Shown here piece by piece: positions 12,169 through 64,000 of a DNA stretch of 64,000 nucleotides (position 1 is its first letter; each line of letters opens with the position of its first letter). Source of the DNA: Macrostomum lignano (taxonomy: Eukaryota). The DNA lies in NCBI GenBank assembly GCA_002269645.1, contig NIVC01001130.1:1-64000 (forward strand), written 5' to 3'. The notes beneath the pieces were generated by a model that did not search any database, was not told the DNA's origin, and saw only the letters and a list, made by a program, of their open reading frames with translations. The translations under genes were made by a program, and so were the position numbers.

Positions 12169-13042
12169 TGATGTGATCCTTATTACCCGACTTTCGATAA
12201 TCAAGGAACAATCACTTCTAGCTCAGTAGCTAGGCAACCCAGTAAGTCAACAGAAGGTATTCAATTACCTTGAGTCCTTGGAGATATCTCTTCGTTGTTG
12301 TTCTCGTGTAGATCTCGTGGTCTTCAATAGACAAGTTGACTTTCGATTGTAGATCGGGTCCGAATTTTCGTTTCTTCTTCTAGTATTTCCGGCCGGATTC
12401 TAACGCTCGGACCAATGGTAAGCTTCCGAATTAACAATGGGTACCCTGCGCCGAACTGCGGTCTGAATTAAGCCTTCTTCATCTAGTAGTGCCTCTCTGC
12501 ACTCTAGGTATGGCTCCGGAAACCACTGATAGTCCTCTAAGATCTATCAGGGGCAGTCCTTCTGGAGACTGCAACCAATGGAGTCTAAACAGACTCAAAA
12601 GTCTCAACAGACTCAAAAGTCTCAACAGACTCAAATAGACTCAAGTCTCAATAGACTTGAGCGAGACGTCTCTAACACAACAGGCGCAAATCAGGAAAGC
12701 TTACCGCAACAACTCGACCGAGTCTCGATTGACTTGGTGATCAGGGAGTCCTCCTAAGGCTTCCTCTTCGGAGCGCTCCTCTTCCGTGGGGAGAATGGCT
12801 CCGGTACCGCTTCAGATCGCTTGTATTTATAGGCAACTTTTTGTTCCAAAATAGCATCATTACAATTCTCGTGTTGCGCTAAAAGGGGAAAATGGCTCAT
12901 GGCGTATTATTCTGGTAACATCTTTTTCTGGTAGCGTGATTCATTCAAAGCTTAGACGCACATGCGTGTACTTACTTACTTATAGTAGTATTATACGATT
13001 ATCTTCTTTTTTCTGTTTTTGCGGGAGGCAGAACACTCTACA
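12169..13042 (-). repeat. LTR type I (874 bp), 3' LTR of copy 2
   Basis: TG...CA termini; PPT adjacent. Confidence 0.92.
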
Positions 13043-13285: not shown

Positions 13286-13917
13286 TCAGCCGAAGCTTGT
13301 CCTGAGCAGGCTGCTCACCTGATGCGTGGTTCGCGCCACCAGGGATGCCACTGCCCTGTACAGCGACTGAAACATAGTGAATCGCGGATTCTCGGTCCGC
13401 TCCAGCAAAAGCAGATAGGCCTCTATGGTCGTAAGCGGTTCTGCTGTACGCACCATAGTCCTGGCGATGTCTAGTAACCACCGCCAGTCGGCCTGATGCT
13501 GAAGCGGCCATGGCCACGATCTTACGGCGACGGCCAGCTGTTCCAGGGTTAGCTCATCCGGCTCCGCCAGCGTTAGCTCCGGTACGGCGAGCATCGGCGC
13601 CAGTAGTACGGATGCTGTGTTGGACAGCGGAGCCAGGCACACGGTGCACGTCATGATGTCTCGTGCACCGTACCGCTGAAGACAGCTGAAACACACCCAA
13701 TGCCGATTTGAACAGAGTCGTACATTGGGCTGGTCGCCGCAAAGGGCACATTGGACCCGCGGTCTGCGACAGACGGGGCAGGCGGTAAGGATCGTCACGT
13801 CGCCAATTTCTCGCGCCCGTTCGTCGCAGGGGAAGCACACCTGGTGCCCCCATTCACAAGTCGGGAGCATCGGCTCCGTGCCTCGAGGCAGCAAGGACAG
13901 GTATCCATCTCGGTCAT
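13286..13917 (-). pseudogene. RING-B with a 1-nt deletion near the start
   Basis: ORF 13286-13894 has both RINGs; ATG at 13917 is out of frame (GGCTCCGTG vs GGCTCCCGTG in copy 1). Confidence 0.82.
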
Positions 13918-13987
13918 CTGTGGGCGATAGGTATAGGTATAGTTAGAACGATTGAGGATTATTCAAGATACGTAACAAGCATATGTT

Positions 13988-14656
13988 CTATCGGTGAGAC
14001 CTAAAAAGCCAAATAAAATAGCTACGTGAGAGCACTAATCGTTTAAGCGCGTGGCAGTATACGTGTAGCGTCCAGTGAAATGATTCATGGTCATGCAAAA
14101 ACTGCCGCAAATGTCGCTCAATCTCCAAGGGTGACATATGACGCAAAAATCCTTGATTTCTATGAGCATATAATAGTAGTTGTCGTCGCGAACGCTGAAA
14201 GAAGCGAGGTACTGGCCAAAACTCCAGCCGTCGTTCGATATTCATAGCGGTTAAGGTGTGCATAGTGTAAACGGATAAACAACGCGCTGGGTCAGGTATA
14301 ATACGACACCATTTCTTAAAAGTGCTTTCGCGGGGCATACTGTTACATAAGGGGCATCCTATAATGCCCCTACTAGCGGTTTGCTTCAAACAGTGCATGC
14401 AAATAAAATTTTGGTGGTTACAATATTGAAACGTGCGCCAAGAATAACAATAGGCGCATTGTCGCAAACTACCTCTACAGAGGGGACAATTCTGCCATGG
14501 CTGAATATAATGAGAATTGCTTAAACATTGTCCGCAAACTTTATGTTCGTTGATGCAAATAGTCGGTGGCTTGACAGCCAAGTCATCAGTTAAACATATC
14601 GGGCAGTCATATAGCTGCTGAGGTTGGGGCGCCTGTTTCGACAGTGCGTTGCCCAT
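13988..14656 (-). CDS. RING-A, intact (222 aa)
   Basis: MGNALSK; two C3HC4 RINGs; nearly identical to 2768-3436. Confidence 0.88.
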   Translation of the reverse strand: MGNALSKQAPQPQQLYDCPICLTDDLAVKPPTICINEHKVCGQCLSNSHYIQPWQNCPLCRGSLRQCAYCYSWRTFQYCNHQNFICMHCLKQTASRGIIGCPLCNSMPRESTFKKWCRIIPDPARCLSVYTMHTLTAMNIERRLEFWPVPRFFQRSRRQLLLYAHRNQGFLRHMSPLEIERHLRQFLHDHESFHWTLHVYCHALKRLVLSRSYFIWLFRSHR

Positions 14657-14776
14657 AATTGTCGTCAATTTGTCGCTGTCTTTGTGTCGCTCGGATTAGT
14701 CGCCTTTTACGACAAGCTTGCGAAGCTGTAGTGCTATTCTTTATCCCGGTCACTACACGGGGTTGTTCTCGAAACT

Positions 14777-17460
14777 CTAGCGTGGTGGTAGGTTGTAGCC
14801 GTGCGGCTGGCTCACGTCTGTCGTTTGAGTCTCCTCGTGCTTCGTCGCGATGTGGCGGTTCGTTGATCGCGTGCGATCAGCGTTGTCTAATGTCGGTAGA
14901 AACGTCGCGGTGTCAGTGTTGATCTTCTTTAGTCGATGAATGTGTACGTAGAACTGGTGCTGATGTGGATCTTGTACATTAGCCAGGCGTGCCGTTGTCG
15001 GTGACGTTAGTTGGACCACTCGATAGGGTCCTTTATACTTCTGTGCATGTTTGTGCGTCTGCTGCGGCGGGTAGTGTAGTAAACGATGTCGCCGGCCGTC
15101 AGGGTTGTCGATCTCGCGTCGTTGCCGGTGGTCAGAGCCACCTGGTTGTCAATGTTGTGCTTGGCGATCTTCCATGCAAGGTGTAGTTGCGGGACGAATT
15201 TTTGAATGGAAGTCGGTACTTCCACGTACTGCGATGGTAGCAATTGCTGTGCGAGCAGATTCGGCGGTTGGAAGTCTCGTCCAAACATTAGGAAGAATGG
15301 CGTATTGTCCGTTGATCGATGAATAGCGCTGTTGTAGGCCATTGTTACAGATTGCAGGTAGATGATCCAGTCTTCCGGCTGTTGGTGCGCGAAATGTGTA
15401 ATCATCTCGTGCAGGTTGCGGTGAAACCGTTCAACCATGTTTGCCTTCGGATTTTAGGTCGATGTGTAGATCTGCGTAATGTTGAGAATCTTCACAACTT
15501 GCTGAAATAGTTAAGACGTAAAGTGCGATCCGTTGTCCGAGGTGAGGTTCTTCGGCGTGCCGTACTTGCAAATGATTTCGTTGAAGAAACTCATTGCTAT
15601 TGTCTGAGCTGTGATGTCCGGTATCGGTATGGCGATAGCAAACTTCGAGAAGATGTCCAAGGCGGTTAGGATGTAGGTGTAGGCGATGCCCTTGAGACAG
15701 CTCGGTGGCAGTGGTCCGGTGATGTCGATGCTTAGACAGTCCATTGTAGTCGACTTCGGAATGGACTGTAGCTGCGGTTTCTGTCGTCGTCCTGTCTTTG
15801 ATGCAGCACATGAATGGCAGTTGTTGCAATACTGCTTGATGTCGCCGTACATAGTTGGCCAAAAGTAGTATTGTTCCACTCTCGCGATGGTCTTTGCGGC
15901 CGACAGGTGTCCAGCGAGTGGGTTGTCGTGCAGCTCGTTGAGAATTGCTTGCCGAAACGAATATGGTACGTAGATCTTAGGTTTATTGTCGCTCATCCAG
16001 TAGAGCCGTGACTTATTGATTGTTAGGTGTTGTCGTTGCTTGCGTAGGAATTTTCGTTCCATGGGACTGAGTTTGATGTTCTTGTCGTCGTCTTTAACCG
16101 CTTGGTAGAAGTTGTCGCGCTCGGTTTCATCCACCAACTCCTTGATGTTAGGGATTGGATGAATGGCGTTGACTTCATAGGCTCTTGACAGGGCGTCCGC
16201 GGCTTTGTTGGTAATTCCTGGTTTGTAGACGAGTTTGTAGTTGTAATCCTGGATCTTGAGTGTCATCCTGATGAGTCGGTTGTTGGTCTGTCCTTTTGTA
16301 GTTACGACGTAGGTCAATGGTGCATGATCCGTGCGTACTATCGTCTGTATTGGAGAACCATAGATGTAGTAATGAAACTGTCGCAGGGCGAACAAGACTC
16401 CTAGTAGCTCTCGTTCCGTAGCTGACCACTTTGTTTCATTTGGTTTGAGTGCTCGACTGACGTAAGCAATAGGTCGTTCCTTCTTGTCCTCGGTTTCCTG
16501 TAGTAGGACTGCTCCGAGTCCCGTTCCTGAGGCGTCTGTCTCGATGATGAAGGGCTTGTCGAAGTCCGGATGCTGTAGCAGTGCGTCTGATGTCAGCTGT
16601 CGTTTGATTTCGTCGAAACTTTCCTGTTGTCTCTGTGTCCAGTTGTCTTGCTTCCATTTGTCGAACTTGAGCAGGTCGTACAGTGGCTTTGCTGTCTTTG
16701 CGAAGTTAGGTAAGAACTTCCTGAAGTATTGCGCAAGTCCAAGGAATGATTGGACCTTCGTTATACTGGTTGGCGTAGGAAACTTCTTCACCTTTTCCAC
16801 GTTGTCTGGGTCCGGTGAGATTCCTTTGGCTGTCACCTGATGTCCCAGGTAACGCACGTTGTCTCGGAAGAATTTGCATTTAGTTGGTTGTAGCTTCAGA
16901 CCTTGGCGTTGAATGAGCGCTAGGGCCTTCTCCGTAGCTTCGTAGAGTCGCTCGAAATCCTCTCCGTAGGCTAAAATGTCGTCGACATAGTGCAGCAGGT
17001 TCGTGCATCCTGCTAGCATGTATGCTGTGAGTCGACTCATCGTTGCTGGGCTGTTGCTAAGTCCCATCGGCGATCGGTTGTACTCATAGACTTGTCCATT
17101 GTAGGTCTTGAAAGCCGTGTACTGTCGTGACTCTTTCTCAATTTCAATTTGCCAAAATCCATGACGTAGGTCGAACACTGTGAACAATTTTGCCGTGTTG
17201 AGCTTTGCTAGTAGTTCGGAGATCTTCGGTAGGCTCTGCTGATCCGTCGGTATGTACTTGTTCAACAGTCTGAAGTCGCATACGAGTCGTCTTTCGTTTG
17301 TCTCCTTCTTCTGTACCAGTAGGCACGGTGAGGAGTAAGCCGAAATAGCTTTGCTGATGATGCCGTGCTTTAGCATTTTATCGATGATTTCGTCAAAGTG
17401 TTGTTGCAGATGCTTGGCGATCGGGTACGGCTTGCACTGAATTGGTTCCGTGTGCGTAGA
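14777..17460 (-). pseudogene. pol: pol (RT-RNase H-IN) of copy 2, disrupted
   Basis: YVDD; ETDASG...ERELL...RTDH; H-H-CxxC; SIDITGP/SDNG/VERFH; stop at 15511, frameshifts near 15080 and 17455. Confidence 0.93.
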
Positions 17461-20400
17461 AGCTTGATTTCCTGTTTAATGTCTTTAGCTCGTCCGATGT
17501 CGTAATCATGATGGCAGAAAGCTTCGTTGTACTTCCACAACAGTTGTCGAACTTTCTTCTTTTGTTGTTCCGTAATCGGGCTGTCGTCCAGGTTGATTTT
17601 CTTTTGGAAATCTTCCTCCGTTATTCGTGGAGCCACGTGCTCAATCAGCATAACTGATGCCTGAGTGTTGAGATGACCGATGCACATTCCTTGTCGTAGA
17701 TGAACCATTTCCGCGTTCGGGTTGAAGATTTGTACTGGCAGCTGTTTATCTTTTGCAACCAGCACTAGTGCCGTAGGCATCATGATTTGATGTTTCGCCG
17801 TGACTCTTCTGTGCGGATCAAATATCATTGCTTCATCTGCCGCGCTGGTCGCTTTCGCTCTGACCCAGCATGCGCTTTCAGGCTGGATGATGACATCCTG
17901 CTGCAGAGTTACTTTCGGTAGTACTCGAATCTGATTGATCAGTGGTTGCTCCACCGTGTCGATCCTAAATGTTTGCTTGTTGAAGTCGAAGGTCAATGGT
18001 AGTCGAAGCTGTTTGAACGTGTCTATTCCAACGATGACGTCTTGGTTTGGTAGTCTGTCGATGATGTACGTCGGGACCGTCAGCTGTTTATTAGCAATTT
18101 TCAAGTCAATATCTGCTTTTCCTAGGATGTTGAGCGAATGTCCTCCTGCTCCTGCAACTGCGATTGCTGCTGGTCGTACCGCGAGTCGTAGCTTGTTGCA
18201 TAATTGTTGCGAGATGACTGTGATCGAGCTGCCTGAATCCAGTAGTGCTCGACATGGCAAGTTGTTGACAATGACCTGAGCCATTGCTTTGCCAATCTCG
18301 GCGTGTAGCGTGCAGACGTAGTTTTCCGGCCATTTTGGCTCGTGTTGTTCAGGCTGATAAGTAGGTGGCTGAATTCTCGGTGCTGTTGGTGTTGTCGGAA
18401 TCGATGGATACATACATCGATGGATGGGTGCATCCTCTGTCAATTCCAAGTTGTTGTCTTCTTCCCTTGGTATCTTCTGCATGATGGCGTTCACTGTTCG
18501 TTTCGCTGTGGGACAAGTGTTGCTGAAGCATCGTACTATAGACGAGATGATAAAGATCGCCGTAACTATCCATACCACACAGGCGCTGTAGAAGATGAAT
18601 CCTTGATATAGACTGCCTCTTCCGTTAAGCAGCTCCAAGAAGCTGTTTGTCCAAAACGATTGGATGGCGTTGTCCATCGATACAAGGACCGGGAAAGTGC
18701 GTGTTCCCGTTCCTTTATTCTTTCGTGTGAAGAGTTGACGAATCATCTTCCGTTGAGTGATGAACGCTTGCAAGAAGTCGTTGATGGTCCATCCTGGTGT
18801 TATTTCATCGAGTTGGATATCGGCGAATGGCGTGTACTTCGTTCTGTTGAACCGTATCTTCAGATCGTCCATATCGTACGTTTCATCGACAATCACCTCT
18901 GGTTCTGTGATGTTCGCTGTCGTTCCTGTCGTTTTAATGACATGTAGTGCATCGTCCAGTTGATAGTAGTTTGCTGCAGTGGTGCAAGGTCTTGGTATTG
19001 CGGTGCCAACGATGATGTTGTGTACCGTGTCCAAGAATCCTTGTATTCTTTTGCCTTCGTAGAATGCCTCAATTCTCGGCTTGTCGTAGCAAGTTGTTGA
19101 AGTGTTCGACGGTAAGATGTTGAAGTGCTGTATCGGCGTACACTTGTATATCAGGAGATGTCCATATATCGGAATTGCCAGAACCTCTCTCATTCCCGTG
19201 ATCTTGCGAAATGTCATCGTAGGGTTGACATAGTAGTTCTGTCTTGCGTAGTTCAAGTTGATTGCGTGCATTTTGCAAGTTAGCTGAACCAGTGACCGGT
19301 GTAAGTGGTTTAGCTGGTTATGCAGGTTGTGATCCAGCGCAGTGATCTTTGCTGACAGTAGTCGGTTCGACACCAGTCGTGGACGTTCTATGTCGCGTCG
19401 TTGCCTTTCTTGTTGTTGATACGTTCCGTTTATGATCGCCAGGAAGGTTCGTTTGTCGTCATCCTTTACATAGACTGGTATTTCTTGCTCCGAAATGAAT
19501 AGCGTCTTGTCCGTATTCTTGCATTTGAGTTTCTGTTCGACCGGCTTCTTTTGGAACGTCAAGGCCAAGTCTCCTGCTTTTGCCAAAAACGTATTCGACA
19601 GTAGTCCTCCTTCCACTGTGTGATACTTTTGAAGCTTGCAGTCAATTTCCGGCTCAACTTCCCATGCGAAGAAATATTGTCGTGACTTGTACGGTTCCTC
19701 ATAGTGTGATTGTGCTCTGTGCTCAATCTGCCATCGATAGTCTTGATGATATGTTGGACTCAGTGGTAGACTGTGTAGTTCTTCCTTCCGTAGAATTGGT
19801 GTTGGACACCAGCCTTCACTGTATCGACATTCGCTTAGTTGCAGCTGTAACGATTCCATTTTCTCGTACGGATTGTAGTAGAATGGAATATTTCTGATCA
19901 AGTAGCTGTTGCGTGCCATATATTCTTTCCATTTTCCGAAGAAGTGAATATATCGACCGTTGGCTGAATTCTTTGTTCTGAACAGCTGTGCGTTGCCGAC
20001 CTTCTCGTCGGGTTCCAATTCACCATCCTTTGAAAATAGTGTTTGGTTCCATTGTAGGCATTCCGCGTGTGACACATGTAGCTCATGTTGTTTAAATCGG
20101 ATCCGGTTCCATTGTCCGCGCCAAACTTTCTCCACCAGGTGCTTGTCTCTGAAGCACACTATTCCGTGTTGTCGATGCTTTTTGATGTTAGCCTTGTAGA
20201 GATCAAGTGTAATCTTCTTTGGTTTTGTCTGGTTTGTCTTGAAGTAGCTGCATTTGATGTCGGTTGGTATCTTGTAAATCATCGGTTGGATATGCGCATC
20301 CGTTGGACAGATCATTGGCTTTTCCGTTGCCGTTGCTTTGGCGACTACTGCTATCAGTAGTATCATGATGATCCAGTATAGCCAGTTTTTCCACTTCTTG

Positions 20401-20486
20401 GACCTTGCCGTTGTCTTTGCTGGCATTGGCCGCGATTGCCATTCGTTATCCTCCATGTCCGCATCGTATTCTTTCGGTTGTTCCAT
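17370..20486 (-). CDS. env: Signal peptide - gB-like Env ectodomain - TM - late-domain tail - aspartic protease - RT start, one open frame (1038 aa)
   Basis: Hydrophobic leader ~20327-20385; N-glycan sequons NQT/NGT/NTS/NIT/NRT; RQRR furin site 19395-19406; TM ~18534-18602; LLDSGSS. Confidence 0.88.
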   Translation of the reverse strand: MEQPKEYDADMEDNEWQSRPMPAKTTARSKKWKNWLYWIIMILLIAVVAKATATEKPMICPTDAHIQPMIYKIPTDIKCSYFKTNQTKPKKITLDLYKANIKKHRQHGIVCFRDKHLVEKVWRGQWNRIRFKQHELHVSHAECLQWNQTLFSKDGELEPDEKVGNAQLFRTKNSANGRYIHFFGKWKEYMARNSYLIRNIPFYYNPYEKMESLQLQLSECRYSEGWCPTPILRKEELHSLPLSPTYHQDYRWQIEHRAQSHYEEPYKSRQYFFAWEVEPEIDCKLQKYHTVEGGLLSNTFLAKAGDLALTFQKKPVEQKLKCKNTDKTLFISEQEIPVYVKDDDKRTFLAIINGTYQQQERQRRDIERPRLVSNRLLSAKITALDHNLHNQLNHLHRSLVQLTCKMHAINLNYARQNYYVNPTMTFRKITGMREVLAIPIYGHLLIYKCTPIQHFNILPSNTSTTCYDKPRIEAFYEGKRIQGFLDTVHNIIVGTAIPRPCTTAANYYQLDDALHVIKTTGTTANITEPEVIVDETYDMDDLKIRFNRTKYTPFADIQLDEITPGWTINDFLQAFITQRKMIRQLFTRKNKGTGTRTFPVLVSMDNAIQSFWTNSFLELLNGRGSLYQGFIFYSACVVWIVTAIFIISSIVRCFSNTCPTAKRTVNAIMQKIPREEDNNLELTEDAPIHRCMYPSIPTTPTAPRIQPPTYQPEQHEPKWPENYVCTLHAEIGKAMAQVIVNNLPCRALLDSGSSITVISQQLCNKLRLAVRPAAIAVAGAGGHSLNILGKADIDLKIANKQLTVPTYIIDRLPNQDVIVGIDTFKQLRLPLTFDFNKQTFRIDTVEQPLINQIRVLPKVTLQQDVIIQPESACWVRAKATSAADEAMIFDPHRRVTAKHQIMMPTALVLVAKDKQLPVQIFNPNAEMVHLRQGMCIGHLNTQASVMLIEHVAPRITEEDFQKKINLDDSPITEQQKKKVRQLLWKYNEAFCHHDYDIGRAKDIKQEIKLLRTRNQFSASRTRSPSICNNTLTKSSIKC

Positions 20487-20529
20487 TGGCTGATTCAGGC
20501 GGAAGGCTTCTGATTCGCTTTGCTTTTTG

Positions 20530-22236
20530 TTATTTCAGTATCTTCGTCTGCGGCTTCTTCCGATGTTTCGGTTGTTTCACTCCATTGCGTTTGGTATCTT
20601 TTCTCTGTCTTGTAGTCGACCGTTTGAATATAGGCTTCACCATTTTGTTTGTATCGGATCTCGTAGCATTCGTCGCTGTCGGAACTCGGCTTTCTTTCAT
20701 CTGTTCTTTTTCCATTTCTTCATCTTTCCATTGTATTTCGTAGCCTTGATCGCTGTCGGAACTTAGATTTTCCGCTCTCAGTTCTTCCTGCATTCCTTCT
20801 TCGGCTCGGTATCCATTCGTATCATCATGCACTTCGCAGTCGTGATCGTTGCCGTAACTTATACATTCTTCTTCTTCCTTCATTTCTTTGTCTTTCGTGC
20901 TTGTTTTGTCGTCATCCACTGTTGTCGATTCATAGTTGATTTCTCTGCCAGTCTTCATCTTTTCTTCGTTGCCGGTGTCGCTCTCCGTCTCCTCCCTTTT
21001 CTTGTGATTTACTTTCTTCCTGTTTTCTCTGCTGTCTCCGGTGGTCTCTTTTAATTCGATCATTTCGGTTTCATTCGCCTCTTCTGTCTTGTCAGTGTTG
21101 TCCTCGTGCGTCGTCTTCTTTTCGATCAAGCTGATGTCAAGTTCCGGGACTGTGAAGTCCATTTCCAAGTCGTTAATTGTGAAGACTTGCTGTTTTTGCT
21201 GCTCATTTTCCGGTGTGTACGTGAATGCATTCGCGTATCGTGGCATTGCTTGCGTTGGCTGTCTTTGTGTGTACCTGGCGTTGCGTGGCCTGTAGCCATT
21301 ATTTCTGAAGCGGCCTTCGTTTCCGAAGCGGCCACCATTTCCGGAGCGGTCATTATTTCCGAAGCGTCTATCATTTCCGAAGCGTCTTATGCCTTGTTGT
21401 TGGCGATTTTGATATTGCTGCCCTGGTTTCTGCGGCTTCTGATTGTTGAATATCTGTCGCGGCTTGTCGTATCTTGTTGACCAATGAGGACAATTAATCT
21501 GATAATGTCCTTCTTGTCCGCAGTAGTAACATCTGGCTGAGGCTTGTTCATTTCGTCTTTTTTGTTCGGCGATAGCAGCTCTCTGGTGCTGCATTAACTT
21601 GTTTAATTGCTGCGTCAGTTTCTGCACTTCATTGTTGCCTGTCGTCATTAATGGGGCACTGGCTTCCCATTGCATTCCGCACCGCAAAAGGTCTTCTTCG
21701 GTTTCGATATTTTCACGCAAAAGTCTATCCCGAAGTGACGGCTGTGCGTTGTTTATTACGTGCAGGATGAGGTTTTGTTCACGATCCATCAATCGTTGTC
21801 TTTCTCTGGCGGCTAATTCTGCCGCTCCCAGTGGCGGTTGGTCTGCAGCTTGCAGCGGTGGCTGATGCAGTGCCTTAATTATCTGGCGGATATCGTCCAC
21901 AAAGGCGAGGAAGGATTCTGTTGCTTGCATCCTTCTATTATGTAACTTGTGCAGCAGCACTGATCTGTTTGTGCCGCAACGGTTGAAATGCGCGCGCAGT
22001 TGAATGATTAGTGCTGGATAATTTTGCTGTGTTGCCGCATCCAGCTTGCCATAAATCTCTCGCGCAGTACCTTGGAGAAGAGGTGGCAGCAGCTGTGCCT
22101 TCTCTGGATTTTGTAGGTTGTATTCCCTACATACCAGGTCAAAATGGTCGACAAATGTGTTAAAATCTTTCTCCATCGAGAAGGTACCGACCGTTTCTTT
22201 GATGTCTCTGTGTACCGTTGGATTGCGCCGCGCCAT
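20530..22236 (-). CDS. gag: Gag (Ty3/Gypsy capsid, CCHC knuckle, FGND repeats) plus acidic linker; frameshifted near 20690 in this copy
   Basis: FNTFVDHFDLVC...ESFLAFVDDIR capsid-like helices; CYYCGQEGHYQINC. Confidence 0.9.
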   Translation of the reverse strand: MARRNPTVHRDIKETVGTFSMEKDFNTFVDHFDLVCREYNLQNPEKAQLLPPLLQGTAREIYGKLDAATQQNYPALIIQLRAHFNRCGTNRSVLLHKLHNRRMQATESFLAFVDDIRQIIKALHQPPLQAADQPPLGAAELAARERQRLMDREQNLILHVINNAQPSLRDRLLRENIETEEDLLRCGMQWEASAPLMTTGNNEVQKLTQQLNKLMQHQRAAIAEQKRRNEQASARCYYCGQEGHYQINCPHWSTRYDKPRQIFNNQKPQKPGQQYQNRQQQGIRRFGNDRRFGNNDRSGNGGRFGNEGRFRNNGYRPRNARYTQRQPTQAMPRYANAFTYTPENEQQKQQVFTINDLEMDFTVPELDISLIEKKTTHEDNTDKTEEANETEMIELKETTGDSRENRKKVNHKKREETESDTGNEEKMKTGREINYESTTVDDDKTSTKDKEMKEEEECISYGNDHDCEVHDDTNGYRAEEGMQEELRAENLSSDSDQGYEIQWKDEEMEKEQMKESRVPTATNATRSDTNKMVKPIFKRSTTRQRKDTKRNGVKQPKHRKKPQTKILK

Positions 22237-22952
22237 GTTGTTGATAGGATAGAACGGTAGTTCAAGATCTGGATCGATTTGTAACGGATCGTCCAGTGTG
22301 GTGTTTGCCTCGGAATAACCCTCGACTGTAACGAATTGCCTTGTGGTGTCGATCTGTTATTTGCTGGCCTCGAATGCGGTGTGGCTTGCTGCCACTGGTT
22401 GTCCTCAAATGAACTTGTTCTGTTCGCTTGCTGATTTCGCACTTAGCTCGTATGCGGCGTCCCGCAAAGTGTATCTTGAAGTGGACTTTGTCTTCTTGCT
22501 TTGCAAAGGCTTTTTTCTCTTCCTTGACTTTTCTCGTTTGTCAATTAACTCCGCTCTCCACGAAGTTTCAATTAATTTCGGTTTTGTTTTAGTTTTTGTG
22601 CCGGCAAAATGTTTCAGTTATTTTTTGTTTGTTTTGCGTCGACGATACTTTTATTTTCGGTTTGTTTTCAGTGTACCGATGAATTTAATTCGGTTTTGTT
22701 TTAAACTCACACTTGCTCGAGCTCGTTAAAACAAAATTTAACACGCCTGCTCAAACTGTACTCAAAATTGTCAGGTGCTCAAACCTGTACACCAAAATTT
22801 TTACTCGAGTTTCAAAACGTTCGGACTTCAAAAGTGTTAACTCTAACACGTGCGCGCAAAATTAATGAAGTCGCTCTGTCGTCACGTTACAATAGCTTGA
22901 TCAGGGCTATTGCTCAAAGTTTGAGTAGTGCCGAGAGGGCGAGATCACCAAT

Positions 22953-23804
22953 TGATGTGTTCCTTATTACCCGACTTTCGATAATCAAGGAACAATCACT
23001 TCTAGCTCAGCAGCTAGGCAACCCAGTAAGTCAACAGAAGGTATTCAATTACCTTGAGTCCTTTGGAGATCTCTCGGAGTAGTTCTCGATTTGCTTTAGT
23101 TGCAGGTGTAGTCACTTCTGACTTTCGTTTGTAGATCGGGTCCGATTCTTCTTTCTTCTTCAAATAGTTCCGGCCGGATTCTGTCGCTCGGACCAATGGG
23201 AAGCTTCCGAATTAACAATGGGATCCCTGCGCCAAACTGCGGTCTAAATTAAGCCTCCTTCTTCTAGCAGTGCCTCTATGCACTCTAGGTATAGCTCCGG
23301 AAACCACTGATAGTCCTCTAAGATCTATCAGGGGCAGTCCTTCTGGAGACTGCAACCAATGGAGTCTAAACAGACTCAAGAGTCTTAACAGACTCAAATA
23401 GACTCAAGTCTCAATAGACTTGAGCGAGACGTCTCTAACACAACGGCGCAAATAAGGAAGGCTTACCGCAACAACTCGACCGAGTCTCGATTGACTTGGT
23501 ATATCAGGAAGTCCTCCTAAGGCTCCCTCTTCGGAGCTTCTCCTCTCGTCGGGAGTTGGCTCCTGGTCCGCTTCGGACCGCTTGTATTTATAGGCAACTT
23601 TTTGATCCAAAATAGCATCATTACAATCCACGTGTTGCGCTAAAAGGGGAAAATGGCTCATGGCGTATCATTTTGGTAACATCTTTTCCTGGTAGCGTGA
23701 TTCATTCAAAGCTTAGGCGCACATGCGTGTACTTACTTACTTATAGTAGCATTATACGATTATCTTCTTTTAACCTTTTTTAACGGGAGGTAGAACACTC
23801 TACA
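22953..23804 (-). repeat. LTR type I (852 bp), 5' LTR of copy 2
   Basis: TG...CA termini; PBS adjacent; outer flank is RING-B sequence. Confidence 0.92.
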
Positions 23805-32500: not shown

Positions 32501-35500
32501 GAGTGTTGAGATGACCGATGCACATTCCTTGCCGTAGATGAACCACTTCCGCGTTCGGGTTGAAGATTTGTATTGGCAGTTGCTTATCTTTTGCAACCAG
32601 CACTAGTGCCGTAGGCATCATGATTTTATGTTTTGCCGTGACTCTTCTGTGCGGATCAAATATCATTGCTTCATCTGCCGCGCTGGTCGCTTTCGCTCTG
32701 ACCCAGCATGCGCTTTCAGGCTGGATGATGACATCTTGCTGCAGAGTTACTTTCGGTAGTACTCGAATCTGGTTAATCAGTGGTTGCTCCACCGTGTCGA
32801 TCCTAAATGTTTGCTTGTTGAAGTCGAAGGTCAATGGTAGTCGAAGCTGCTTGAACGTGTCGATTTCAACGATGACGTCTTGGTTTGGTAGTCTGTCGAT
32901 GATGTACGTCGGGACCGTCAGCTGTTTATTAGCAATTTTCAAGTCGATATCTGGTTTTCCTAGGATGTTGAGTGAATGTCCTCCTGCTCCTGCGACTGCG
33001 ATTGCTGCTGGTCGTACCGCGAGTCGTAGCTTGTTGCATAATTGTTGCGAGATGACTGTGATCGAACTGCCTGAATCCAGTAGTGCTCGACATGGCAAGT
33101 TGTTGACAATGACCTGAGCCATTGCTTTGCCAATCTCGGCGTGTAGCGTACAGACGTAGTTTTCCGGCCATTTTGGCTCGTGTTGATCCTGCTGATAACC
33201 AGGTGGCTGAATTCTCGGTGCTGTTGGTGTTTTCGGAATCGATGGATACATTCGCGTTGATGGTGTCGGCTGTCCTTGAGTTTCTTGACGTGCATCCTCT
33301 GTCAATTCCAAGTTGTTGTCTTCTTCCCTTGGTATCTTCTGCATGATGGCGTTCACTGTTCGTTTCGCTGTGGGACAAGTGTTGCTGAAGCATCGTACTA
33401 TCGACGAGATGATTAAGATCGCCGTGACTATCCAAACAACGCAGGCGCTGTAGAAGATGAAGCCTTGATATAGGCTGCCTCTTCCGTTAAGCAGCTCCAA
33501 GAAGCTGTTGGTCCAAAACGATTGGATGGCGTTGTCCATAGACACAAGGACCGGGAAATTGCGTGTTCCCGTTCCTTTATTCTTTCGTGTGAAGAGTTGA
33601 CGAATCATCTTTTGTTGAGTGATGAACGCCTGCCAGTCGTTGATGGTCCATCCTGGTGTCATTTCATCGAGTTGGATATCGGCGAATGGCGTGTACTTCG
33701 TTCTGTTAAATCGTATCTTCAGATCGTCCATATCGTACGTTTCATCGACAATCACCTCTGGTTCTGTGATGTTCGCTGTCGTTCCTGTCGTTTTAATGAC
33801 ATGTAGTGCATCGTCCAGTTGATAGTAGTTTGCTGCAGTGGTGCAAGGTCTTGGTATTGCGGTGCCAACGATGATGTTGTGTACCGTGTCCAAGAATCCC
33901 TGTATCCTTTTGCCTTCGTAGAATGCTTCAATTCTCGGCTTGTCATAGCAAGTTGTTGAAGTGTTCGACGGCAAGATGTTGAAGTGCTCTATCGGCGTGC
34001 ACTTGTATATCAGAAGATGTCCATATATCGGAATTGCCAGAACATCTCTCATTCCAGTGATCTTGCGAAATGTCATCGTAGGGTTGACATAGTAGTTCTG
34101 TCTTGCGTAGTTCAAGTTGATTGCGTGCATTTTGCAAGTTAGCTGAACCAGTGACCGATGTAAGTGGTCTAGCTAATTATGCAGGTTGTGATCCAGCGCC
34201 GTGATCTTTGCTGACAGTAGTCGGTTCGACACCAATCGTGGACGTTCTATGTCGCGTCGTTGCCTTTCTTGTTGTTGATACGTTCCGTTTATGATCGCCA
34301 GGAAGGTTCGTTTGTCGTCATCCTTTACATAGACTGGTATTTCTTGCTCCGAGATGAATAGCGTCTTGTCCGTATCCTTGCATTTGAGTTCCTGTTCAAC
34401 CGGCTTCTTTTGAAACGTCAAGGCCAAGTCTCCTGCTTTTGCCAAAAACGTATTCGACAGTAGTCCTCCTTCCACTGTGTGATACTTTTGAAGCTTGCAG
34501 TCAATTTCCGGCTCTACTTCCCATGCGAAGAAATATTGTCGTGACTTGTACGGTTCCTCATAGTATGAGTGTGCTCTGTGCTCAATCTGCCATCGATAGT
34601 TTTGATGATATGTTGGACTCAGTGGTAGACTGTGTAATTCTTCCTTCCGTAGAATTGGTGTTGGACACCATCCTTCACTGTATCGACATTCGCTTAGTTG
34701 CAGCTGTAACGATTCCATTTTCTCGTATGGATTGTAGTAGAATGGAATATTTCTGATCAAGTAGCTGTTGCGTGCCATATATTCCTTCCATTTTCCGAAG
34801 AAGTGAATGTATCGACCGTTGGCTGAATTCTTTGTTCTGAACAGCTGTGCGTTGCCGACCTTCTCATCTGGTTCCAGTTCACCATCCTTTGAAAACAGTG
34901 TTTGGTTCCATTGTAGGCATTCCGCGTGCGACACATGTAGCTCATGTTGTTTAAATCGGATCCGGTTCCATTGTCCGCGCCAAACTTTTTCTACTAGGTG
35001 CTTGTCTCTGAAGCACACTATTCCGTGTTGTCGATGCTTTTTGATGTTAGCCTTGTAGAGATCGAGTGTAATTTTCTTTGGCTTCGTCTGGTTTGTCTTG
35101 AAGTAGCTGCATTTGATTGGCTGATCCAGGCGGAAGGCTTCTGATTCGCTTTGCTCTTTGGTTATTTCAGTATCTTCGTCTGCGGCTTCTTCCGATGTTT
35201 CCGTTGTTTCACTCCATTGCGTTTAGTATCTTTTCTCTGTCTTGTAGTCGACCGTTTGAATATAGGCTTCTCCATTTCGTTTGTATCGGATCTCGTAGCA
35301 TTCGTCGCTGTCGGAGCTCGGCTTTTCTTTCATCTGTTCTTTTTCCATTTCTTCATCTTTCCATTGTATTTCGTAGCCTTGATCGCTGTCGGAACTTATA
35401 TTTTCCGCTCTCAGTTCTTCCTGCATTCCTTCTTCGGCTCGGTAGCCGTTCGTGTCATCGCGCACCTCGCAGTCGTGATCGTTGCCGTAACTCATACATT

Positions 35501-43600: not shown

Positions 43601-44330
43601 TTTTGCCACCAGCACTAGTGCCGTAGGCATCATGATTTGATGTTTTGCCGTGACTCTCCTGTGTGGATCAAATATCATTGCTTCATCTGCCGCGCTGGTC
43701 GCTTTCGCTCTGACCCAGCATGCGCTTTCAGGCTGGATGATGACATCTTGCTGTAGAGTAACTTTTGGTAGTACTCGAATCTGGTTAATCAGTGGTTGCT
43801 CCACCGTGTCGATCCTAAATGTTTGCTTGTTGAAGTCGAAGGTCAATGGTAGTCGAAGCTGCTTGAACGTGTCGATTCCAACAATGACGTCTTGGTTTGG
43901 TAGTTTGTCGATGATGTACGTCGGGACCGTCAGATGTTTATTAGCAATTTTCAAGTCGATATCTGCTTTTCCTAGGATGTTGAGTGAATGTCCTCCTGCT
44001 CCTGCAACTGCGATTGCTGCTGGTCGTACCGCGAGTCGTAGCTTGTTGCATAATTGTTGCGAGATGACTGTGATCGAACTGCCTGAATCCAGTAGTGCTC
44101 GACATGGCAAGTTGTTGACAATGACCTGAGCCATTGCCTTGCCAATCTCAGCGTGTAGCGTGCAGACGTAGTTTTCTGGCCATTTCGGCTCGTGTTGATC
44201 CTGCTGATAACCAGGTGGCTGCATTCTCGGTGCTGTTGGTGTTGTCGGAATCGATGGATACATTCGCGTTGATAGTGTCGGCTGTCCCTGCGTTTCATGC
44301 TGTACGCACGCTGTGCGTGCGGGCAAGTGT
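40625..44330 (-). CDS. pol: Uninterrupted Env-tail-PR-RT-RNase H-IN frame of copy 5 (~1230 aa)
   Basis: ORF 40625-44383: YPSI/PTAP/PPGY, DSG, YVDD, DASG, HHCC, DDE, GPY, GYNLRPR. Confidence 0.95.
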
Positions 44331-59720: not shown

Positions 59721-60979
59721 GCCCAGAGACGCGCTCTCTGACTTCTCCCCCCTTTCTGGCCACTGCGTGGCTGGCGGGTGAAGTACTTTTGCTGTGTTGT
59801 GTTGTTGTTAGCGAGTTAAACAATATGTGCATATTATTAAAACAAATTATAGAAATTCGCTGATTGGCTAACAATTTAATACTGGTATTAGTAGTAACGT
59901 ACGCTAGTTTTATGCCCTATTTCAGTAATAAATAATGATAACAGAACTATAAACGATTTGAAATTGCAAACTTGTGAACATTGAGAAATGTAACCTGTTG
60001 GAGCTTTTTTAAGTCTCAGTAGAATCTGCACAAAATGCTTAGAGAAAGCTGCAGAACTGCTTGGAGATTAGCGGAATTTGCTCAGGGACTGTGCAAAACT
60101 GCTTATACACAAGCACTACACTGCTAAGGAGCCGTCCGGAGGGGGGCGAAATGGCTAGTACTACTTACTATATTCAAATGAGTACTATGCATCGCATGTA
60201 AGCTACGCGCGTTGTTCGTTATTTCTACGAGTATTATCTAATATATCTATCGATCCACCAAGCTATTTATCCGGAGGAGTTGTCAATTTAAAACTGCTAG
60301 AAATTACTCACTGTGTCTGGCTAAGTAGGCTGACTATCCTTAAATGATCATCGCATGTTAATATTTTTTGCAATGATATTTATGTCATTTTTCGCTAATA
60401 TCTACTTTTATGGAGCTGGTCAGTAATAAACGATGGGCACTAAATTATTCTACTTGGAAACGGAATAGCCGCTTATAATCTTTTGACCAAGTTGATCATT
60501 TTTTTAGGCAAAGCTCCCAAACCGGCTTGTAGGGCCTGGGAGAGAAAGGGATTTGCTGAATGTTTAGAATGGAATGTATAAATATTGTACAATAATAAAG
60601 TCTGCGAGTTCAAGCGACTTTGGTATGTTTGCTAAAGCATTGGGGTGGTCGGCTGTCTTCCTCCATTGATTTCTCTGTTTAGGGCGGTAAGATTACGTAA
60701 TTAGTGTGTGCAGTGAGGGCGGGTGCCGATTTCCTTGTCTGCTGCTGCTGCTGCGGTCGCTGCGCGGCTCTCGCCAAATATGCAGACATGTTGGGACAGA
60801 GGGAGGTGTACCAGTAAAGACGGCCGAGTGTGACAATACGAGGGTAAGAGTGACACGAACTGCATAGGCTAACCAGATCATATTCTTTTCCACTTAGGCA
60901 CCAACACCCTGCAGTATCCATCTTATTCCTTCACATACCCCACACTAATCGCTAATATCCGGTCAAGATCCAACACATT

Positions 60980-61765
60980 CTGTTCACACTCACACCCTAC
61001 CCTGCAAGATCCAACCCATATTCTGTCACATATCCCACACCCTACCCTGCAAGATCCAACCCCATATTCTGTCACATATCCCACACCCTACCCTGCAAGA
61101 TCCAACCCCATATTCTGTCACATATCCCACACCCTACCCTGCAAGATCCAACCCCATATTCTGTCACATATCCCACACCCTACCCTGCAAGATCCAACCC
61201 CATATTCTGTCACATATCCCACACCCTACCCTGCAAGATCCAACCCCATATTCTGTCACATATCCCACACCCTACCCTGCAAGATCCAACCCCATATTCT
61301 GTCACATATCCCACCCTACCCTGCAAGATCCAACCCCATATTCTGTCACATATCCCACACCCTACCCTTCACGATCCAACCCATATTCTGTCACATATCC
61401 CACACCCTACCCTTCACGATCCAACCCATATTCTGTCACATATCCCACACCCTACCCTGCAAGATCCAACCCCATATTCTGTCACATATCCCACACCCTA
61501 CCCTTCACGATCCAACCCATATTCTGTCACATATCCCACACCCTACCCTGCAAGATCCAACCCCATATTCTGTCACATATCCCACACCCTACCCTTCACG
61601 ATCCAACCCATATTCTGTCACATATCCCACACCCAACCCTGCAAGATCCAACCCCATATTCTGTCACATATCCCACACCCTACCCTTCACGATCCAACCC
61701 ATATTCTGTCACATATCCCGCACCCAACCCTGCAAGATCCACCCTATGCTCTGTCACACCCCACA
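60980..61765. repeat. 45/46-bp minisatellite, about 17 units
   Basis: CCACACCCTACCCTGCAAGATCCAACCCCATATTCTGTCACATATC and a CTTCACG variant. Confidence 0.95.
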
Positions 61766-62269
61766 CCATGCTGCAGTATCTTGCTTTACTTGAATTTCTG
61801 CTGCAGAAGCAAGCATCTATATAGGCCATGTTTGTAAATACTCGTAACTACATGTAACTTCATCAACTGCATTTAGCCGTAAGTCCCACAGCTATTTACA
61901 AGTAGGCTTTGACTTCAGAGCAGAGCTTGAGAGGCGAAGGATAACAAGGGCTGAGCTTATCCGCATGCAGCTAAGCAAACCTTGCCGTGCCTGGGCTGAC
62001 TGCGCCAAGCCTTTCTCTCTGCACCCTATTTATGCTAATTTGTTTCCCAATCAGGCGGGGCTTCTAAGCTAGTCTATTCCCGGCATAACTGGCGATGCGC
62101 ACCAGCTACCAGCAAACATGCACTCCATCGATTGTAGTTGGTGATAATATTCCTGTCTGGCTAAGCGGCTGGCGCAGAGGGGAGATTGTCGGGAAGACTA
62201 CGATTAAGTGGCTGGAGGGGGGAGAAATTAGGGAAGTTAGAGAAATCTGCGGAGAATGTGAAGAGTGGG

Positions 62270-62810
62270 GGAGAGAATAGAAGAGGGGAGAGGAGAGGAG
62301 AGAATGAGATAGGAGGGGATAAGAGGGAAAGGAGAGGCGAGGCGAAGAGAGGAAAGGAGGGGTAAGGTACTCGTAAGAGGGAAGAGGAGAGGAGAGGAGA
62401 GGAGGCGGTAAAGGTATGAGGGGACCGCTATGAGGTGAAGACGGCATGACTTGTTTTACATGTCATGCAGCCAAAAAAGCTCTGATGAAAGCCACCCAGA
62501 TCCCTCAGATCCTCAGAGTAGAATCCCGGGTCCTATTCTCTCCTCACCTCTCTTTTCTCTCCTCACATCTCCTCTTTTCTCTTACCCCCTCGTCTCCTCT
62601 ACTCTCCTCTCCTCTCCTCTCCTCTCCTCTCCTCTCCTCTCCTCTCCTCTCCTCTCCTCTCCTCTCCTCTCCTCTCCTCTCCTCTCCTCTCCTCTCTTCT
62701 CCTCTCCTATCCTCTACTCTCCTCTCCTCTCCTTTCCTCTCCTATCCTATCCTATCCTCTCCTCTTCCCTCATACCTTAACCCCTCCTCTTCTCTCGTCT
62801 CCTCACCTCT
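62270..62810. repeat. Purine-rich (GGAGA-like) tract and (CTCCT)n microsatellite
   Basis: 62270-62405 and ~62590-62760. Confidence 0.9.
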
Positions 62811-63734
62811 CCCTAAAGAGAGGCGAGAGGCTAAGGAGATAGATGCTTACAGAAGACAATCGCAGAAAAATAGCAGCTCGAAAAATGAAGCAGAGAAGAA
62901 GTGATGAAAGATCAGAGTAGGAGATCAATATTCTAGCTCGTAGTACCCTCTTATTTCGAATTTTTCATCTGGTCGGGACTTGAATTGGGACACCTTCGCT
63001 CTGGATGATGAGAAAGAAGCTGGGATCGTAGCAAGGAGTTTTGTTGGGGAGGATTTGTGATTTTTTGTTTGCCAAGACGGCGCTCACCTCTCTCAGGCCC
63101 TCCCGAGCTGGTGCAGACCGCGGACTGCAGGATTTGCATATACAAGCTTAGGACGAGGCTCTTGTGCTTCGTGGAGCGGAATCTGATGCTCAGTTAATGA
63201 GAGCTGCACCTCCTCGTGTGCCCCCTGCCTCCGATCTGATGTTGGACTTCTTTTCTGGCACAGTGGCATCGCTATATTGGGATTGCTTGCCAGGGTGTCC
63301 GACAGGGGGCGGTGGGGTCACGGCTATTCTATACACGAGCTGAGCACTTGTCTGCTGGCGGCTTGACACTTCTCTGTTTCATTCGATCGATTCCGCAGAG
63401 TTGACAAGGTCATGGAGCCCGCCTTGCGGTTTCCTGTTTCCAGTTAATCTTCATCGAAATTAAACTCTCCAGTTCTGACCAACCTCACCCCCACCCCCCA
63501 GGCGTCATCCTCTGCAGAGCTGCAGGTTCGATCTGAGCTCTTCTCAGAATATGACGACCTCTGCGTTATGGAATATCGCTTGCTTCAGCTTCAGGATTTT
63601 TATACCAGTACTTGTAAAGAGTACATACAGCACCCTTAACTGTTAGGGGGTTTGGACTTTTATCTGTAAATTTTCTTAAAATTTTCACATGGGAAATTGA
63701 GACTCTGGTTTATAATTTTAAATGACCAGGTGAT

Positions 63735-64000
63735 CTTGTGTTGGATGCATGCAGGTGATTGTGTGGGGATGAATCCAGGTGATCTGTGTGGGGATGAATC
63801 CAGGTGATCTGTGTGGGGATGAATCCAGGTGATCTGTGTGGGGATGAATCCAGGTGATCTGTGTGGGGATGAATCCAGGTGATCTGTGTGGGGATGAATC
63901 CAGGTGATCTGTGTGGGGATGAATCCAGGTGATCTGTGTGGGGATGAATCCAGGTGATCTTGTGTTGGATGCATGCAGGTGATTGTGTGGGGATGAATCC
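63735..64000. repeat. 25-bp minisatellite running off the window edge
   Basis: GTGTGGGGATGAATCCAGGTGATCT repeated, flanked by longer variant units. Confidence 0.95.

Follow-up and report, generated by a model that had tools for sequence, protein, structure and literature searches.

How does a retroelement that carries its Env between Gag and Pol leave the cell, and could short motifs in the Env tail serve as its budding signal? This question is raised by a stretch of 64,000 nucleotides of Macrostomum lignano DNA (the window), in which an initial annotation described three ESCRT late-domain motifs clustered in the tail of an Env protein and proposed that the element buds as an enveloped particle, its budding signal having moved from Gag to the cytosolic side of Env.

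The element is a Ty3/gypsy LTR retrotransposon in which Gag, Env and PR-RT-IN belong to one polyprotein. Five damaged copies and fragments of this one LTR element, 84-89% identical in DNA, lie in the window, every one of them on the minus strand; because these copies represent a single family, agreement among them alone says little. Same-strand copies, LTRs and fragments of the family occupy about 50 kb (12-51578), no copy being undamaged, which may reflect a hotspot for nested insertion or an array resembling a piRNA cluster. The Pfam order was CCHC, protease, RT, RNase H and integrase (Ty3/gypsy), followed by two RING-like ORFs. In several genomic copies Gag-Env-PR-RT-IN forms a single stop-free frame of 2,480-2,538 codons, and in copy 1 of the window Gag and the Env N-terminus also share one frame. 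Copy 2 has a frame of 1,054 codons (17370-20534) that takes in the glycoprotein with a hydrophobic helix on either side, the 68-residue tail and the aspartic protease, and its frame is broken in the Gag linker, at the RT start and in the integrase. The features of copy 2, and the clusters of two further copies, are as follows.

22953..23804, minus strand: 5' LTR of copy 2, about 852 bp, TG...CA
22939..22950, minus strand: primer-binding site, the same site behind five LTRs of the window
20385..22236, minus strand: Gag (capsid, one CCHC knuckle) and acidic linker, frame broken at ~20720-20530
20328..20384, minus strand: TM1, predicted internal signal/anchor helix joining the Gag linker to Env (hydrophobic stretch)
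18603..20327, minus strand: Env ectodomain, predicted class III fusogen of the herpesvirus gB fold (Foldseek on a model)
18534..18602, minus strand: TM2, predicted Env C-terminal membrane helix (hydrophobicity; matching helix called in P0001)
18330..18533, minus strand: predicted cytosolic Env tail, 68 aa in copy 2, ending at W|P
18399..18413, minus strand: (M/L)YPSI, ALIX-type motif ending in I, with Y, P and I invariant in 20 haplotypes
18378..18389, minus strand: PTAP, TSG101-type motif, invariant, with silent changes at T and the last P
18357..18368, minus strand: PPxY (PPTY), NEDD4/WW-type motif, its P, P and Y changing silently only
17940..18329, minus strand: aspartic protease (PF13650, E 6e-10), C-terminal boundary approximate
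14780..17454, minus strand: RT, RNase H and integrase, frame broken near 17455 and 15079 in copy 2
13988..14695, minus strand: accessory RING-finger ORF 1, 235 aa (PF13639, E 9e-4, below cut-off)
13286..13942, minus strand: accessory RING-like ORF 2, 218 aa (weak PF21362, E 0.03)
12169..13042, minus strand: 3' LTR of copy 2, 89% identical to its 5' LTR
33195..33251, minus strand: motif cluster of copy 4
44207..44263, minus strand: motif cluster of copy 5

A helix was found at the place of TM1 in 43 relatives, and TM1 itself appears to end in a signal-peptidase-like A-x-A. The ectodomain has a furin-like RQRR at 19395-19406 and matched PF24664 weakly (E 3.4e-4, below cut-off). Its structural model (pLDDT 63.7, pTM 0.36) had HSV-1 gB as the best match (Foldseek E 8e-20), and Env is assigned on this model, at a pLDDT of ~64 and a low TM-score of about 0.28, to the herpesvirus gB (class III) fold. 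The tail is 76 aa long in most copies, copy 2 having a 24-nt deletion. The W|P at its end, 31 residues ahead of the catalytic aspartate of the protease (18240-18242), may be the protease N-terminus, W|P being read as a cleavage site by the cleavage preference of the protease. A universal W|P protease site was rejected, since WP stands ahead of the protease in only 6 of 18 relatives. RING-finger ORF 1 has equal length in L012, L015, L016 and L028, the counterpart of ORF 2 in a sister family matches PF13920 (E 5e-7), and the two ORFs are kept behind pol in both local families (window 13286-14695; L059:7907-9320). They are possible ubiquitin ligases that could act with the tail motifs. A search for tRNA genes found none, and heat-shock elements (26 matches vs 20.6 expected) were rejected. 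Of 24 sequencing runs listed, 20 contain part of the window and none of these is recorded as RNA; contigs from four runs indicate its presence only. Tandem repeats at 60906-61767, 62260-62812 and 63726-64000 of the window are unrelated to the element.

The gag-env-pol layout is already published, and what appears to be new, against the literature searched, is the late-domain cluster in the Env tail. GAG-ENV-POL errantiviruses with an HSV/gB-type Env are described from Nematoda, Bryozoa and Platyhelminthes (Chary and Hayashi 2026, PMC13524379, where Sacco et al. 2022 is cited for such elements); like the M. lignano element they are multi-copy and have a Ty3/gypsy Pol, with a gB-type Env between gag and pol. 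The catalogued M. lignano errantivirus_2 shares its 12-nt primer-binding site with the element in the window, and its LTR measures 863 bp vs about 852 here (PMC13524379). A named M. lignano protein, P0066, is 94% identical to the element and carries the motif cluster. Compared by primer-binding site, LTR length, Env type and this 94% protein identity, the element is probably of the same family as errantivirus_2. The available main text of PMC13524379 contains no "late domain", "PTAP" or "budding", and its seven supplementary files returned no PTAP; the PSAP rows that they returned are ectodomain alignments, where tails may go unseen. A model of Gag and Pol tethered to the membrane through Env was likewise not found in this source.

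A six-frame scan showed that 18357-18410 on the minus strand reads exactly YPSIPTTPTAPRIQPPTY, the peptide named in the initial annotation, with YPSI starting at 18410, PTAP at 18389 and PPTY at 18368. The codon ahead of YPSIPTTPTAPRIQPPTY is M (18411-18413, minus strand), so that the cluster with this residue spans 18357-18413. The peptides quoted for copies 4 and 5 also matched letter by letter (33195-33251 and 44207-44263), and the placement in the Env tail ahead of the protease was borne out, the cluster lying between the Env C-terminal membrane helix and the protease. The motif peptides of copies 2, 4 and 5 are all in the protease frame, and those of copies 2 and 4 are in the Env frame too; in copy 5 the Env frame is broken by an indel just upstream of the cluster. 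Copies 1 and 3 have lost the motif region through internal deletions. When the 68-residue tail of copy 2 was shuffled, all three motif classes occurred together in 8 of 200,000 shuffles. The final residue of the YP motif is I, vs the canonical L.

Conservation was then scored over the family at large. The whole cluster was present in 44 of 48 fetched loci; two of the exceptions stop short of it, and two keep YPSI and PTAP and are broken behind them. The 41 in-frame tails make up 25 haplotypes, many copies being near-identical, and residue-level conservation was scored on 20 equal-length haplotypes. PTAP, which had been called invariant, showed no amino-acid change in these, and PPxY varied, as claimed, only at its wildcard (T, N, G or I); the residue before YPSI was L or M only. 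The ten fixed motif residues had no amino-acid changes and silent variants at six, whereas 32 of 70 other tail columns vary; by our own arithmetic, ten invariant columns would arise by chance with a probability of ~0.002. Five non-motif residues within the block were also invariant. Silent changes were about as frequent within the block (12 extra codons in 19) as elsewhere in the tail (35 in 52), and the constraint is therefore on the peptide; conservation of the motifs at the protein level is supported by these sequences. P0001, a gene model of the family, is without the motif block, and it may be a modelling artefact because other internal stretches are missing from it as well.

The same data bear on the quite improbable explanation that the block is a proline-rich spacer before the protease, either resembling late domains by chance or kept because of protease processing or an RNA element. 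The low-complexity tails are rich in proline, the entire 19-codon block is well conserved beyond the motif residues, and the family is young, 14 of the 41 tails sharing one haplotype, all of which would fit a spacer. Since silent changes are not suppressed there, an RNA element or an overlapping frame is disfavored.

A sister family in M. lignano is 83% identical in RT, 69% in protease, 63% in ectodomain and 32% in the tail. Its tail reads PTAP and then IYPKI, which is the reverse of the order in the query family, and this swap also speaks against a spacer. Among the five sister-family loci that reach the tail, PTAP was found in four (L059, L061, L064 and L067), and L060, an uninterrupted copy of 2,502 codons, has PNAP in its place; IYP(K/R)I was kept in all five. 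There is no PPxY in this tail, and PPPY stands just before TM1 instead. In P0003, which represents a third M. lignano family with an Env identity of 28%, the motifs read PSAPP and LYPTL. In an RT tree (FastTree, midpoint root, 58 rows) the three local families formed a clade with P0075 and P0076 (support 0.995), four of the five having motifs: P0075 has PPLY overlapping LYPTI, and P0076 has none of the motifs. The PPPY, seen at residue 590 of the long frame in L059 and L060, lies on the other cytosolic side of Env, and a second PSAP was seen just before TM1 at residue 566 of P0003; these are single cases because enrichment before TM1 was not significant among 36 relatives. P0003 also has a long threonine-rich, mucin-like insert in its Env ectodomain (residues ~990-1190).

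A full-library search returned 65 Env relatives, 34 of which had a usable tail. Twenty that ended before TM2 and six without an automatic TM call were excluded, and five were removed by hand: P0001 (same family, no motifs), the mis-anchored P0013, P0044 and P0049, and P0062, which had six residues. P0004, one without an automatic TM call, ends in PSAP and was left uncounted. In the 34 distant tails, P(T/S)AP occurred 5 times vs 0.27 expected (0/1000 composition-matched shuffles), YPx(L/I) 6 times vs 1.14 (2/1000) and PPxY 3 times vs 0.76 (37/1000), the last being marginal. Any motif was seen 14 times, in 12 of the 34 tails, vs 2.17 expected; without two tails whose match overlapped the query motif, this became 11 vs 1.79 and PPxY was no longer significant. 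Longer forms of the motifs were also in excess, [LMI]YPx[LI] with 3 vs 0.18 and PTAPP/PSAPP with 3 vs 0.03. The YP motif ends in L in P0003, P0018 and P0022 and in I in P0075 and both local families, and two YPxL matches near the membrane may be chance. Pairwise identity among the motif-bearing relatives is mostly 19-37%, with a single pair at 47%; one of these relatives is a protein named from Haemonchus contortus, a nematode.

Absence from more divergent relatives had been named as the outcome that would speak against the motifs. Because P(T/S)AP and (L/I/M)YPx(L/I) recur where Env is 19-28% identical, this check was passed for these two classes. PPxY is strongly conserved within the query family, but the evidence for it elsewhere is weak: it is absent from the sister-family tail and marginal in distant tails (3 vs 0.76). 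None of the strict motifs was found in 22 of the 34 distant tails, nor in four of the five env-bearing elements found via Pol, nor in P0067. That most distant tails are without motifs would again fit a spacer, but P(T/S)AP occurred 5 times vs 0-1 for 10 of its 11 anagrams, and the eleventh, (T/S)APP, had 3 occurrences, all overlapping PTAPP/PSAPP. Other parts of the proteins showed no enrichment, with 3 motifs vs 1.63 expected in Gag-side linkers (n=36) and 5 vs 3.98 in ectodomains (n=20). Taken together, the motifs are, at the level of sequence, real, under selection and recurrent across divergent gag-env-pol elements. Among these relatives, P0025, P0033 and P0038 have two protease-like motifs in one polyprotein, and P0133 has two Env-matching stretches.

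The proposal that the budding signal had moved from Gag did not find support. Of 111 proteins found via Pol, 49 were set aside for want of a usable RT/protease anchor or of sequence upstream; the remainder comprised 57 env-less and 5 env-bearing proteins. At the equivalent place, a stretch of 113 residues ahead of the protease, no motif of any class occurred in the 57 env-less Gag-Pol proteins. The difference between 12 of 34 Env tails and 0 of 57 env-less segments gave a Fisher p of 1.7e-6, which is overstated because the rows are related. These numbers weigh on a very unlikely account in which the block is the ancestral p6-like end of Gag, env having been inserted between the nucleocapsid and this peptide, so that the signal never moved. 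The position before the protease is that of HIV-1 p6 and EIAV p9 (PMC8402826), and a gag-env-pol order needs an insertion into the Gag-Pol frame. The 0 of 57 count goes against this account, although the control proteins are not the nearest env-less kin and the RT tree gives the sisters a weak placement. This account concerns origin and is compatible with a budding function. We favor instead the view that the motifs would have originated within the Env tail, with continuing turnover at that place, and are not a relocated piece of Gag.

The Gag of the motif-bearing family has no PTAP and no PPxY, and it has no N-terminal glycine; because of this, the Env tail would be the obvious handle for ESCRT. 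A YPAL in the capsid region was rejected as a Gag late domain, the sister family having HTL there. In known systems PTAP binds ESCRT-I, YPDL-like motifs bind ALIX and PPxY binds NEDD4-like ligases; one late domain can stand in for another, and their position is flexible (PMC2958808, PMC8402826). It is quite likely that the tail motifs are real ESCRT-pathway ligands.

Among the proteins encoded by the host genome are HECT ligases, an ALIX V domain and a TSG101 UEV domain, the last of which matches the human structure at E 1e-44. In an alignment, the host UEV keeps human Y68, N69, I70, T92, M95, V141, S143 and R144, and it has H at the position of human TSG101 Y63 and V at that of F142 (L077-L079). 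We take all of these residues, including Y63 and F142, to line the PTAP pocket of TSG101, and the H and V may alter PTAP recognition. The host ALIX V domain keeps the phenylalanine that we take to be the ALIX pocket residue. At the host TSG101 locus a tandem repeat, probably intronic, reads YPSIPPDP many times in translation (L078:2091-2606), which is likely a coincidence.

We lean toward a mechanism in which the Env tail provides TSG101- and ALIX-recruiting late domains while Gag and Pol are tethered to the membrane by the two helices of Env. This mechanism rests on Gag, Env and Pol being in one reading frame, a point absent from the initial annotation. The polyprotein would be ordered Gag, linker, TM1, gB-type ectodomain, TM2, tail, PR, RT, RH and IN. 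Judging from hydrophobicity and this order, TM1 would bring the ectodomain into the ER lumen and TM2 would return the chain, so that Gag hangs from TM1 and Pol from TM2, both on the cytosolic face; this tethering would replace a matrix domain and carry Pol into the particle. By the rules of viral late domains, the tail PTAP would bind TSG101, (L/M)YPxI would bind ALIX and, in the query family only, PPxY would bind a NEDD4-type ligase. The motifs would bring ESCRT to the bud neck, and an enveloped particle would be released at the plasma membrane or into an endosome. The protease may release itself at the W|P behind the motifs, which would thus remain on Env.

The same ESCRT and NEDD4 ligands might instead sort Env and Pol into multivesicular bodies and have no part in particle scission, either limiting the exposed fusogen at the surface or exporting protein in exosome-like vesicles. 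We regard this as possible but rather unlikely. The conservation and enrichment results fit it equally well, the Env tail has three lysines, and many relatives are without the motifs; moreover, the PPRY of bluetongue virus NS3 affects both distribution and release (PMC4452911), and retroviral Env tails bear trafficking motifs (PMC1592117). Against sorting, the Gag of the family has no other late domain, and PTAPP/PSAPP and (L/I)YPxL are the viral forms. AP-2-type YxxPhi signals with a non-proline residue were not enriched in the tails (17 vs 17.6 expected), nor were dileucine signals, whereas YPxPhi occurred 7 times vs 1.9. The packing of two to three motif classes also resembles Gag late-domain clusters (PMC8402826).

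Release by late domains on the Env tail, the reading we prefer, has partial parallels. Retroviral Gag proteins cluster the same three classes (HIV-1 p6 with PTAP and YPXnL; MLV with PSAP, LYPAL and PPPY; PMC8402826, PMC2958808), whereas the M. lignano motifs, known from sequence, lie on the tail of a fusion glycoprotein and the YP motif ends in I. Bluetongue NS3 has PSAP and PPRY on a viral membrane protein and needs them for release, but it is non-structural and not a fusogen, and the virus is non-enveloped and not a retroelement (PMC4452911). The planarian element Burro, also from a flatworm, likewise makes a single polyprotein in which Env is placed in frame after Gag and ahead of the protease, and it too has RING/ubiquitin-related extras; it differs in being twice as long (4,873-5,140 aa), its Env is likened to gypsy Env and mononegavirus fusion proteins, and the available text mentions no late domains (PMC6431247). 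The Drosophila errantiviruses gypsy and ZAM are Env-bearing Ty3/gypsy elements with a non-myristoylated Gag, as here, but have the order gag-pol-env and a sorting motif proposed in Gag (PMC3383448). A late-domain cluster in the Env tail of a gag-env-pol element was not found in the literature searched (PMC5834213, PMC10309623 and PMC12801592 included), which left most subscription journals outside.

More broadly, we tentatively suggest, from the sequences compared here, that in GAG-ENV-POL errantiviruses a membrane-spanning polyprotein may tether Gag and Pol through the Env helices while the fusogen tail recruits ESCRT, that late domains may have appeared, disappeared and changed their arrangement from one flatworm or nematode lineage to another, and that the RING proteins may supply ubiquitin. 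Such an assembly route, if true, is not described for retroelements. In 2012, ESCRT use was reported as unknown in env-bearing invertebrate retrotransposons (PMC3383448), and a 2026 survey called transmission elusive outside Drosophila (PMC13524379). The present data offer sequence-level evidence of selection for ESCRT ligands on the fusogen, not on Gag, in such elements. A peptide of 20 residues and three host proteins make the proposal directly testable, and M. lignano transgenesis is published (PMC12801592). If true, the mechanism would explain the gag-env-pol order, since the Env helices would carry Gag and Pol to the membrane, and the placement of the motifs suggests how a little-studied group of elements may leave the cell.
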